Source: Candidatus Spyradenecus sp.
GTDB taxonomy: Bacteria > Verrucomicrobiota > Verrucomicrobiia > Opitutales > UBA953
NCBI GenBank assembly: GCA_045535075.1
Contig: JAZSKX010000018.1
Coordinates: 192,001 to 256,000, forward strand
Length of the DNA: 64,000 nt
Reading direction: 5' to 3'
The position numbers were made by a program, and so were the translations under genes. The number at the start of each line of letters is the position of its first letter. The first letter of the stretch is position 1. The notes under the pieces were generated by a model that worked only from the letters and a program-made list of their open reading frames with translations, was not told the DNA's origin and did no database searches. This document shows positions 145 to 33,201 of this stretch, piece after piece.

Positions 145-177
145 AAAAAGGCGTTTCCTCGCGGGAACGCCTTTTTT
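145..177 (+). terminator. Intrinsic terminator whose stem contains the motif
   Basis: AAAAAGGCGTTTCC-TCGC-GGGAACGCCTTTTTT hairpin with U tract right after the stop at 125. Confidence 0.8.
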
Positions 178-251
178 ATATTATCAAAGGAAAGACGCTC
201 CGAACCGCAAGGACGCTTGCCTTGCAGCAGGAATGCGGTTTTGATTAACGC

Positions 252-1640
252 ATGCTGATTGAGATTCCCGACAACGAAAAAGTCGCTCTGACCCGCTTTT
301 TTAGCGAAATAAAAAAGCGCGGCGGACAAGCGCTTTTTGTCGGCGGTTGCGTGCGTGATGCGCTTCGCGGCGAGCTCCCAAAAGATTTTGACGTCGAAGT
401 TTACGGCGTTCCCGCAGCAGAAATTGAAGACATTCTACGGGAACAGAAAATTCGTTATAACACTGCAGGTCGTTCTTTCGGAGTCTTTAAGATTCACGAC
501 GCTCCCGTCGATATTGCTCTCCCGCGCCGGGAATCCAAATGCGGTCGCGGGCACACGGGTTTCCGCGTTGAAGGCGATCCGGGAATGCCGCTTGCAGAAG
601 CCGCCGCCCGCCGCGACTTCACCATCAACGCGATTTACTACGATCCTCTCTCCGACAGCATTTCGGATCCGTTTAACGGGCAAAAAGACTTGGAGAAAAA
701 GATTCTCCGTCACACATCTCCGGCGTTTTCAGAAGACCCGTTGCGGGTATTGCGGGCGATGCAATTTCTTGCCCGATTCCGTTTTGAAATTGCGCCGGAA
801 ACGCTCGAACTTTGCAAACGCATTGAACCGGAAGGGCTCTCACGGGAACGCGTTTTCGACGAATGGAAAAAGCTTTTCACAAAAGGCGAAGAGCCTTCCC
901 GCGGCTTAAACTTCCTGCGAGATTGCGGCTGGGTAAAATATTTTCCCCAGTTGGAAGCGTTAATCGGCGTCGAACAAGATCCGTTTTGGCACCCGGAAGG
1001 CGATGTATGGAACCATACACTACGCGCGATGGATGCATTTGCTCGGGAACGCGTCAATGATGATTTTGAAAACATCATCGTCGGGCTTGCGGTGCTTTGC
1101 CACGATTTCGGGAAACCGGCAACAACAGCGCTCGGCGATGACGGCCGCATTCATTCCTATCGACACGAAAGTGCAGGCGTAAAACCCACAATTCGCTTTT
1201 TAAAATCAATGACAGACCAGCGGGAGCTAATCACCGACGTTCCCGTCTTGGTTGAAGCGCACATGCGCCCGCGCGCACTTTTCCTCGCCAATTCCGGCGA
1301 TGCGGCAATTCGGCGTCTTTCCAATACCGTCGGACGCATTGACCGCCTGCTCCGCGTGTGCAAGGCGGATGCACTCGGAAGCCGCTTTCACGAGAGCGAA
1401 GATTTCCGGGAAACGGAACTTTGGCTGACATCGCGCGCCGAAGCCTTAAAAATAAAAGATTCTACGCCCAAACCGCTCGTTCTCGGCAGGCACTTAATCG
1501 CACTCGGCTTGTCGCCGGGAACATACTTTACGGAAATTCTTCGGCATTGTTTTGAAGCACAGCTCGACGGTATTTTTACCGACGAAGCCGGCGGCATTGA
1601 TTTTTTAAAAGGGCTTCTCGAAAAAGAAAAATACCGGTAA
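252..1640 (+). CDS. cca: CCA-adding tRNA nucleotidyltransferase with HD domain
   Basis: [30 protein letters not shown]-domain motifs [10 protein letters not shown] and HDFGK. Confidence 0.88.
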
Positions 1641-1685
1641 TCCTTTCTTGCAACAGCGTTCCCGCGATAGTGTAATTGGAATTCT

Positions 1686-2120
1686 ATGTTACAAGGAATC
1701 TCACCGCTTCTTTCCCCCGAACTGCTCGCCGTGCTTTGCCGCATGGGACACGGCGATGAAATTGTGCTCTCCGATGCACATTTTCCGGCAGAAACCTTCA
1801 ACTCGCGCGTCCTGCGCGCCGACGGAATTCGCGTTCCCGCGTTGCTCGACGCAATTCTTCCGCTTTTTGTGCTCGATCCCTACGTAAAATCGCCCGTCAT
1901 CATGATGGAAGCGGTTCCGGGCGACACGCTGGATCCGGAAGTCGGCAAATCCTACCGGGAAGTCATCGATCGCCGCCGCCCGGGAACGCCGGATTTTGAA
2001 TTGATGGAGCGTTTTGCATTCTACGAACGAGCCAAAAAAGCTTTTGCCGTCGTTGTTACCGGCGAAACCGCCAAATACGGGAACATCATTCTCAAAAAAG
2101 GTGTTACTCCGATTGAATAA
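1686..2120 (+). CDS. fucU: L-fucose mutarotase (RbsD/FucU family)
   Basis: [41 protein letters not shown]. Confidence 0.9.
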
Positions 2121-2148
2121 AACACGACAGTCTTAATTGCACTAAAAA

Positions 2149-31265: not shown

Positions 31266-31394
31266 CGGCACACATTTTTACAAACTCTTCCCGAAAACGC
31301 AAAAAAGAAAACCGCGTAAACCTAAGATTTCCGAATCGTTCCCGCCGCTCATTTAGGCTTTAAGCGGCAATCGTTAATGCTTAGGCTTTGCCGT

Positions 31395-32060
31395 ATGAGC
31401 GAAGATTTAAAATGTCGGATTTGCGGAGCTCCCGCGACTATTCATCTGACTCAAATCATCAACGGGAAGATGCGAAAAATTCATCTTTGCGAACAATGTG
31501 CCGCCAAGCACAATGCCGCCGAGATGCCGCTGATTAAATTTGCGGAGATGATTACCAAAAAACTTTTCGGAGAAAAACTCGGCAAGGAAATCATCGAAGG
31601 CACCGTTAAATCGTTTTCGGAAAAAGATTTAAAGCTCGGAAAAAAATGCCCGAATTGCGGTTTGTCCGAAAGCGAACTGGAAAAAAATGAGCGCTTCGGG
31701 TGCCCTCAATGCTACGAAGTTTTTGAAAAGGAGCTGAAAGCGATTCTGCCGAAAATCCAACATGCCGATGCCGTTCCCGCAACGGACACGGCAAATATTA
31801 ATTCTTCCGTTCCCGCGAAAGCCCTTTCCGAAAATCCTTCTCTCGAAGATTTGGAAAAGGCGCTTCGCGATGCCGTCGCCAAAGAAAATTATTTACTCGC
31901 CGCCCAAACGCGAGACCGAATCGCCGCGCTCAAGGAAACCGCCAAAAAGCCCAAGCGGACAAAAAAATCCGTTGCTCCCGCAAACGAAGGGAAAACGCGA
32001 AAAAAGAAATCGTCGGATACTCCTTCGGCAAAAACTCCCCGGAAAAGAAAAAAACAATGA
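31395..32060 (+). CDS. mcsA: McsA protein arginine kinase activator (CxxC x4, UVR domain, basic tail)
   Basis: CRIC, CEQC, CPNC, GCPQCY; AVAKENYLLAAQTRDRI UVR motif; overlaps mcsB (ATGA). Confidence 0.85.
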   Translation: MSEDLKCRICGAPATIHLTQIINGKMRKIHLCEQCAAKHNAAEMPLIKFAEMITKKLFGEKLGKEIIEGTVKSFSEKDLKLGKKCPNCGLSESELEKNERFGCPQCYEVFEKELKAILPKIQHADAVPATDTANINSSVPAKALSENPSLEDLEKALRDAVAKENYLLAAQTRDRIAALKETAKKPKRTKKSVAPANEGKTRKKKSSDTPSAKTPRKRKKQ

Positions 32061-33133
32061 GCGACTTAAAACGTTTTCTCGCCGGAACGCATTTGCACCC
32101 GCGCCCGTCTCTCCCGATTTTAATCCGTTCCCGTGTCCGCCTGGCGCGCAATCTTTCCGATTCCGTCTTTCCGAATCGACTCTCTCCGCAACAACGCGAC
32201 GACACGAAGAATCGGATTCTCGACGTTTTGAAAAAACTTCCGGAGTTTTCCGGCGCAAGCTGTTTTGAAATGCACGATCTTACGCTCGCCGAAGCGGAAA
32301 TCCTCGTCGAACGCCACCTCATTTCCAAAGAACTTGTCGAGCGGGAAGGCGCCGCCGTAATCATTGACTCCGCGCGGAAAATCTCCGTCATGATTAACGA
32401 GGAAGATCATTTCCGTATTCAGGTTTTGGATACGGAAGTCGACTTGGCAAAACTTGCGGGAACGGCACAAAAACTCGCCGCGACAATCGCCCGGGAATTA
32501 CCTTTCGCGAGTTCCGCCCGCTACGGCTACCTGACGGCATGCCCGACCAATCTCGGCACGGGAATGCGCGTTTCCGTCATGGTTCACCTTCCGGGTTTAG
32601 TTATGGACGGCCAAATGGAAAAAGTTGTCCGCTCGCTCAACATGTGCGGACTGACCGTGCGCGGATCGCTCGGCGAAGGCTCGGACGCCGCAGGAAGTAT
32701 TTTCCAAATTTCCAATCAACGCACGCTCGGGCAACCCGCCGAGAAAATCGTCTGCAACCTCCAAGATTGGCTCAAAAGCCTCATCGAACAGGAACGCAAT
32801 GCCCGCCGCCGCGTTGTTCGCCGCGCCAAAAATGTATTTTTTGATCAAATCGGGCGCCTTTACGGCGAAGCGCGTTTCGGAGTTTTGATTTCCGAAAGTG
32901 AAGCGCTGACCGGGCTCTCGCTCATGCGGCTTGCCTGCGACCTCGGGATTTTCCCCGAGTACACGCGGGTGCGATTTGACGAATTGCTCACGGAAAGCCA
33001 AGACGCGCACATTCGTTTTCGCAATAAAATCGCGGGAACGGCAAAACCGAACGAGCTTGCGGATCGTTGCCGCGCGACACTTTTTCGCGAAACCTTTTCA
33101 ACGCTCCCGCCGCCGGATTTTTCGCGACTCTAA
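32057..33133 (+). CDS. mcsB: Protein arginine kinase McsB
   Basis: RVRLARN, ERHLIS, INEEDH, YLTACPTNLGTG, FQISNQ. Confidence 0.9.
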   Translation: MSDLKRFLAGTHLHPRPSLPILIRSRVRLARNLSDSVFPNRLSPQQRDDTKNRILDVLKKLPEFSGASCFEMHDLTLAEAEILVERHLISKELVEREGAAVIIDSARKISVMINEEDHFRIQVLDTEVDLAKLAGTAQKLAATIARELPFASSARYGYLTACPTNLGTGMRVSVMVHLPGLVMDGQMEKVVRSLNMCGLTVRGSLGEGSDAAGSIFQISNQRTLGQPAEKIVCNLQDWLKSLIEQERNARRRVVRRAKNVFFDQIGRLYGEARFGVLISESEALTGLSLMRLACDLGIFPEYTRVRFDELLTESQDAHIRFRNKIAGTAKPNELADRCRATLFRETFSTLPPPDFSRL

Positions 33134-33159
33134 ACCTCAGCTAAGTAGAAGCAGAAAAC

Positions 33160-33201
33160 AAAAAGGCGTTCCCGCATGTACTTCACGGGAACGCCTTTTT
33201 T
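33160..33201. terminator. Bidirectional terminator built from an inverted motif pair
   Basis: AAAAAGGCGTTCCCGC...ACGGGAACGCCTTTTTT between convergent mcsB and fhs. Confidence 0.85.

Follow-up and report, generated by a model that had tools for sequence, protein, structure and literature searches.

Transcription terminators that incorporate a DNA uptake word have been reported only for the Neisseriaceae, with their DNA uptake sequence (DUS), and the Pasteurellaceae, with their uptake signal sequence (USS), and this also holds for the text of TerminatorNet, a 2026 survey of the terminators of thousands of genomes, in which Verrucomicrobia are not treated (PMC13020248). According to the available text of Kingsford et al. 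(PMC1852404), 54–57% of Neisseria terminators contain the DUS, with one order of the inverted copies strongly dominating (226:5), which was ascribed to A/T flanks. Here, we describe hairpins whose stems are inverted copies of an unrelated seven-base word, CGGGAAC, in a 64,000-nt stretch of a 1.95-Mb draft genome of Candidatus Spyradenecus sp. (G000:C5:192001-256000; hereafter the window, the genome being G000). An earlier note on the window had proposed that intrinsic terminators are built from such pairs, and the observation was confirmed and found to be genome-wide. No description of uptake sequences in Verrucomicrobia, of natural transformation in Opitutales or of the corresponding 8-mer was found in the literature searched, which mostly excluded subscription titles, and papers returned for Spyradosoma were on microbiomes or nomenclature; the supplements of TerminatorNet and of 10.1101/2025.10.24.684340 could list further lineages.

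Paired copies of the word at gene ends

A stock terminator scan (loops of at most 8 nt; window positions 1–20000) returned 44 sites compared to 41 in shuffles. As it passed over most hairpins containing the word owing to its loop limit, we wrote a motif-blind scan for a hairpin followed by a T run, and applied it to the 993 gene-end regions defined by our own gene calls (1,638 genes). Matches were found in 344 of the 993 gene-end regions versus 8 of 408 divergent regions, and three shuffles of the gene-end regions gave 15–17 hairpins and no pairs. Out of the 287 hairpins left once two-way matches were merged, 127 (44%) carried an exact copy of the word in both arms, where the copy density of the remaining intergenic DNA predicts 4.9 and GC-matched sequence 19.4, and 162 (56%) contained at least one exact 7-mer. 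The fraction of terminators with paired copies, proposed in the earlier note as a check, is thus far above chance.

The spacing of the inverted pairs, a second check proposed there, showed a sharp intergenic peak for GTTCCCG followed by CGGGAAC, with 56 pairs at a gap of 12 nt and 0.2–0.3 pairs per gap beyond 60 nt. Pairs in the opposite order and on the same strand were spaced nearly evenly between genes, and no peak was seen within genes. Analysis of the flanks extended the word to (YYR)CGGGAAC(GC), that is YYR-CGGGAAC-GC, and the 12-nt mode, within an overall hairpin range of 6–16 nt, corresponds to a loop of six bases flanked on each arm by three bases of the extended word. Outside genes the main order outnumbered the reverse by 161 to 20, as opposed to 46 versus 43 inside genes, and the pairs were distributed unevenly over gap contexts, with 63 in 165 convergent, 94 in 744 co-directional and 4 in 205 divergent gaps. 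In the both-arm hairpins GTTCCCG came first 123 times and second only 4 times. The earlier statement that both arm orders occur is therefore literally correct and misleading, its example at 16186 being one of the four exceptions, and the argument it drew from mixed order against a transposed element falls away with an order that is almost fixed. Stems free of the word had a weak C-first bias (26:17), and self-folding of the first arm differed by just 1.5 kcal/mol between the two arm orders.

The hairpins lie at a median of 23 nt past the stop codon and have U tails. When the 84 co-directional pairs were oriented by the upstream gene, the 3' T run exceeded the 5' A run in 60 versus 6 cases, the first inner pair was U·G on the transcribed strand in 40 versus 7, and the sense strand folded better in 67 versus 15, whereas the 60 convergent pairs were symmetric (22:21 for T versus A run, and 20:15). 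The anatomy of an intrinsic terminator, a GC-rich hairpin with a U run shortly past the gene on the transcribed strand, was thus found, and the hairpins are almost certainly intrinsic terminators, as predicted, built from the word.

Two further features of gene ends were observed. Rho-family matches are located at G000:C2:90602 and C8:182313, one of them above the cut-off, and the organism has Rho beside intrinsic terminators. Furthermore, intergenic DNA of G000 and of the related genome G013 contains, for instance after groEL, arrays of AT-rich heptamers (AGAGCTT/AAAGCTT-like) as well as an element led by GGCTACCTCT that recurs, both located between stop codons and terminators.

The dispersed word

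The paired copies are only a small part of a much larger population, as about 4% of all copies are paired and about 96% are not. The 8-mer CGGGAACG occurs 5,159 times in G000 on both strands (2.65 per kb), compared to 587 copies expected from a third-order model, and the 7-mer CGGGAAC reaches 3.2 per kb in coding and 4.1 per kb in intergenic DNA and is found in all six frames. Within the window (1–64000, both strands) there are 184 copies of CGGGAAC, of which 141 are CGGGAACG, mostly as single copies within genes. Synonymous codon shuffling within genes yielded 901–945 coding copies, versus 5,535 in the actual genes, by which codon usage was rejected as the source of the word, in agreement with the earlier note.

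Coding copies were oriented in sense more often than in antisense (3,330 versus 2,216). With the leading strand assigned by third-position skew on the draft genome, strand bias was small, both for intergenic single copies (281:218) and for the sense share of coding copies (62% in leading versus 59% in lagging genes), and a strong leading-strand bias of the Chi type was not found. Nor did single copies have an A/T tail beyond background. A mini-hairpin formed by single copies on their own was rejected, the flanking positions covarying little. Lone copies were also seen in or across the loops of other stems (nine listed). Two stretches judged prophage-like by eye from their gene content were poor in the word (0.4–0.6 per kb), with 19 copies in the 33.5 kb of G000:C16:188000-221500 and 5 in the 12.4 kb of C8:22800-35200. 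A CRISPR array with 36-bp repeats (G000:C1:102400-104215), adjoining genes that by eye resemble cas2 and cas1, has a repeat unrelated to the word.

Distribution and loss of the word across the genus

The genus set comprised 19 genomes (G000 and 18 others), and 42 genomes from sister genera were included for 8-mer counts. The strict pair pattern was present in all 18 other genus genomes and in 0 of 22 others. The 8-mer was counted 5,159–7,777 times in 15 genus genomes and 552–1,385 times in the remaining four (G001, G002, G013 and G014), in which it is 4- to 10-fold rarer, as compared to 31–383 times in the sister genera. In a single-gene GroEL tree the word-poor genomes are split over two branches: G001, G002 and G013 (1,347–1,385 copies) are sister to G000 and nested among word-rich genomes, so that decay is the simplest reading, and G014, where tailed pairs are likewise lost (8 left), stands apart. 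Samples of 40–64 kb from the four genomes revealed no new dialect. Downstream of groEL, a full pair lies within 75 nt at 10 of 18 genus loci, one arm at 5 and none at 3, the word in the groES-groEL terminator being retained across the genus with differing loops, and no copy of the word follows groEL at 12 sister-genera loci.

The decay was followed in G013. Only 983 of 4,234 coding sites of G000 (23%) were kept, compared to 24–42% for nine control words. In 21 shared genes, from a comparison covering about 50 kb of G018, 27 of 47 sites were kept in this more distant genome (controls 0–50%) versus 9 of 48 in the closer G013 (p 1e-4). At 120 gene ends that have a full pair in G000 and a usable orthologue in G013 (28 further ends lacked one), G013 had 36 full pairs, 14 one-arm hairpins, 42 word-free hairpins and 28 ends where none was detected. 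Tailed pairs numbered 79 in G013 versus 140 in G000, while total 7-mers were down to 31%. Many orthologous terminators had changed on both arms, with double compensatory variants at 20:79 in G013 versus 11:140 in G000 (p 0.003). Turnover is ongoing in both lineages. As many orthologous gene ends in G013 keep a hairpin without the word, termination appears to require pairing and not the word itself, and the terminators appear to shed the word slowly. We favour the word's place in terminators being a by-product rather than a function.

Hairpins within the window

The window encodes, among others, the housekeeping genes clpPX, groESL, rpoBC and tuf, and the sequencing runs containing DNA of this genome were from gut or faeces samples. 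The host is a Candidatus Spyradosoma-like member of Opitutales; its named GroEL relatives, at 73–76%, are Verrucomicrobiota that include Opitutaceae, and none of them is close. An Rfam scan returned four tRNAs and nothing else. All nine stretches listed in the earlier note are present as described, and 11 folds (nine sites, two of them on both strands) had z-scores of -3.1 to -8.9 versus shuffles. Four stretches contain two exact inverted copies of CGGGAAC. The first (2149–2190; GTTCCCG 2157–2163, CGGGAAC 2176–2182, gap 12) is a predicted terminator without assigned strand between the convergent genes for L-fucose mutarotase (+) and an 85-aa open reading frame (ORF; -), with its best tail on the minus strand. 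The second (16186–16225, minus strand) has the rare order, with CGGGAAC at 16193–16199 ahead of GTTCCCG at 16212–16218 (gap 12), and is predicted to terminate an ORF ending at 16241. The predicted groES-groEL terminator (19710–19750, minus strand; 19718–19724 and 19739–19745, GTTCCCG first, gap 14) was the most stable relative to shuffles (-35.4 kcal/mol, z -8.9), and is skipped by the motif-blind scan itself due to a gatB start call that shortens the tail. The fourth (33160–33201; 33168–33174 and 33186–33192, GTTCCCG first, gap 11) separates mcsB (+) from fhs (-) and is predicted to terminate in both directions.

The remaining five stretches contain less than two exact copies. The predicted terminator at 145–177 (plus strand; -19.9 kcal/mol, z -6.7), located 24 nt past the stop at 125, combines an exact CGGGAAC arm (162–168) with a variant GTTTCCT arm that pairs via G·U, in keeping with the one exact and one variant arm described before. 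Partial or variant copies had been described at four more sites, and the copies are as described, whereas two of the sites are doubtful as terminators. The hairpin at 7620–7668 (plus strand), after clpX, has one exact 7-mer (7631–7637) and a poor U tail, and that at 59088–59125 (minus strand), between tuf and tRNA-Trp (59001–59074), has one exact 7-mer (59095–59101), lacks a U run on the strand that is transcribed and is likely not a terminator. At 35991–36026 (plus strand), directly after tRNA-Ala (35904–35979), only the 6-mers TCCCGC/GCGGGA are found, together with a T run, and at 43538–43578 the double variant GTTTCCG/CGGAAAC forms a predicted two-way terminator between convergent genes.

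Assembled contigs from one RNA study, with depth left aside, were compared to these sites. One contig ends at 16199 and contig ends at 19747 and 19750 fall in the groES-groEL hairpin, while a contig runs on past the clpX hairpin to 7735; loose ends at 19711 are also seen in a DNA-like run, and the ends at the two hairpins are only suggestive of termination. A 1,609-aa ORF encoding a RecQ-plus-UvrD fusion (37513–42342; 43% GC) has no copies of the word and is missing at the same place in G013; it was likely acquired recently.

Interpretation and alternative explanations

The word shares several traits with uptake words of the DUS/USS type: it exists in thousands of asymmetric copies, has a large share of the terminators with an order bias, is kept as DNA between species and is scarce in acquired DNA. 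Judged by this pattern, uptake appears to be the best match, and the word is probably a self-tag for DNA uptake. The excess of coding copies over synonymous shuffles, the scarcity in prophage-like stretches, the lone copies in loops of other stems and the retention of coding sites in G018 point to a force that acts on the DNA. Biased uptake and recombination would push such a word into every position tolerating it. As a terminator stem takes any sequence that pairs, a copy in one arm would bring its complement into the other, and the pairing would then slow decay, so that the word would persist longer in terminators than in genes. The putative driver is sequence-biased uptake through a type IV pilus with ComEC, DprA and ComM. 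For the explanation as a whole, in which the stems are inverted copies of an uptake-tag-like word spread by biased uptake and co-opted into predicted terminators, we see somewhat better than even chances. More tentatively, and short of what we would call probable, the genus may have a third, independently evolved system of uptake self-recognition, in which the word is read by neither ComEA nor a ComP-like pilin; two lineages would have switched the preference off and their genes shed the word, the terminators being a slow-decaying record.

Concerning the machinery, G000 encodes ComEC, DprA, ComM, a secretin, two PilB-type ATPases and one PilT-type ATPase, and seven pilin-type genes in which only the N-terminal motif was recognized. 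The least acidic of these pilins (141 aa; G000:C5:99026-99451) was found in 19/19 genus genomes and in 0/42 other family genomes, a control pilin likewise lacking distant matches. A comparison with 1.8 billion representatives yielded just two clear relatives of this pilin; pilin homologues bear the source labels Candidatus Spyradosoma sp. (82%) and Opitutales bacterium (90%).

Several results weigh against uptake as the driver. ComEA was not found in G000, where the helix-hairpin-helix (HhH) matches were Tex-, DnaE-, UvrC- and integrase-like by sequence, and the bodies of all seven pilins are net acidic (-1 to -22); electropositive surfaces are described for ComP, FimT and the proposed ComN in the available text of PMC12616744. 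ComEC is not diagnostic, being present in 25 of 25 genomes searched, other families included, and, along with DprA and pilin genes, it is retained by the four word-poor genomes. As the single copies have no A/T tail, the reason offered for the arm order in Neisseria does not carry over to the 123:4 order. The number of tailed pairs is unrelated to the genome-wide counts over the 19 genomes (rho -0.09; 91–96 in the decayed clade, 57–150 in rich genomes), and 25 of 64 G013 pairs lie at places where G000 is without a full pair. Finally, 255 of the 1,638 G000 proteins are missing or weak in 66 G013 contigs, which contain about 97% of its word copies, and no lost gene accounting for the decay was found in this comparison. 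A 132-aa gene of unassigned family (G000:C1:100340-100738) is cleanly missing in G013 and was found in 10 of the 15 genomes rich in the word and in none of the four poor ones; it had been taken by eye as TfoX-like, which was rejected as Pfam TfoX_N gives it no score.

Some of these observations would suit a word that acts inside the cell, as a signal for recombination, repair or nucleoid binding that biased gene conversion or binding-site selection spreads and terminators acquire passively. The missing ComEA, the acidic pilins and the decay without loss of competence genes would all be expected, and every census result fits any genome-wide drive. However, the word shows little of the leading-strand bias of Chi, its depletion in prophage-like DNA and its pattern in terminators match uptake tags, and its density is far above any known need of a binding protein. 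We consider an intracellular signal unlikely.

Less likely still, with perhaps a slim chance, the paired form could represent palindromic repeats of the repetitive extragenic palindrome (REP) type, which a transposase, or recombination between the shared arms, would have spread from one gene end to another, with an order due to descent and single copies related but separate. The 123:4 order, the sharp 12-nt mode and pair counts that are independent of genome-wide counts would be in line with copying, as would seven loops that occur twice in G000, one hairpin that recurs unchanged in G013 and G000 but follows different genes, and two genes for Y1 (RAYT/IS200-like) transposases in G000 (C10:1-1000; C14:6400-7200). 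The earlier note had pointed out that the loops differ, and had named hairpins sharing loop or flank sequence and associated with a RAYT as evidence against its proposal. Instead, 137 of 144 loops were distinct, only A/T runs were common outside the stems, and the Y1 genes are flanked by other palindromes and had no match in 7 of 15 genus genomes. Moreover, the pairs hold only about 4% of the copies, the 12-nt gap is made up of extended-word bases and a normal loop, and the spacing peak is absent within genes. On present evidence a REP family is thus disfavoured as the source of the pairs. Upstream of the Y1 gene on C10 lies a tandem array of ~140-bp units, and a single CGGGAAC is found in one palindrome loop.

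A methylation site, acting in the manner of HIP1 or as a methyl mark read in transformation, is very improbable. CGGGAAC has the form of MmeI- or BREX-type sites, being asymmetric with a penultimate A, and G000 encodes a 951-aa MmeI-family protein, but the MmeI-like gene (35–81% identity) is found in only 9 of 19 genus genomes, two word-poor ones included. In the five genomes searched for four methylase families, the families were patchy: the word-rich G018 (7,023 copies) had no match to PF00145, PF02384 or PF02086 and one partial match to PF01555, and G000 had none to PF01555. As none was common to all carriers, the MmeI-like or another methylase was rejected as a common cause. Similarly remote is a role as RNA, with a protein that binds transcripts at GGGAAC-containing stems or at single copies. 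The sense excess in genes and the fixed terminator order would fit, but 40% of the coding copies are antisense, all six frames are used, and orthologous terminators lose the word through compensatory change.

Comparison with known systems

HIP1 of cyanobacteria resembles the word in its very high copy number and Chi in being asymmetric; however, the word described here is not palindromic, is accompanied by no shared methylase that we could find and has little leading-strand bias. REP palindromes with their RAYT, and dRS3 of Neisseria, likewise consist of short inverted repeats in the intergenic DNA downstream of genes and have a preferred spacing. They differ from the pairs described here, in which there is no shared loop or foot, gaps vary from 6 to 16 nt, resident Y1 genes have other palindromes and most copies are unpaired.

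The USS of Pasteurellaceae is closer, having a short core with weaker flanking positions and inverted pairs in terminators. It differs in that its AT-rich flanks are long, a smaller part of the terminators contains it (16–29%) and arm order is less biased (50:25 in H. influenzae), as given in the available text of PMC1852404. Closest is the DUS of Neisseriaceae, to which the earlier note had drawn a parallel that held. Sequence and phylum are unrelated, and, compared to the DUS as described in the accessible parts of PMC1852404 and PMC3630211, the word at 2.65 copies per kb has only ~4% of its copies paired, single copies without an A/T tail, and neither a ComP-like basic pilin nor ComEA found beside it. 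What the two share, within the same sources, is thousands of copies on both strands, a presence in about half of the predicted terminators (54–57% there, 56% here), one dominant arm order (226:5 there, 123:4 here), enrichment in convergent gaps and tails that follow gene direction. If uptake is indeed the driver, the same pattern would have arisen in another phylum from an unrelated word, self-tags would have evolved at least three times, and comparing sister lineages that have the drive with those that lack it would make selection versus molecular drive, and function versus by-product in terminators, testable.

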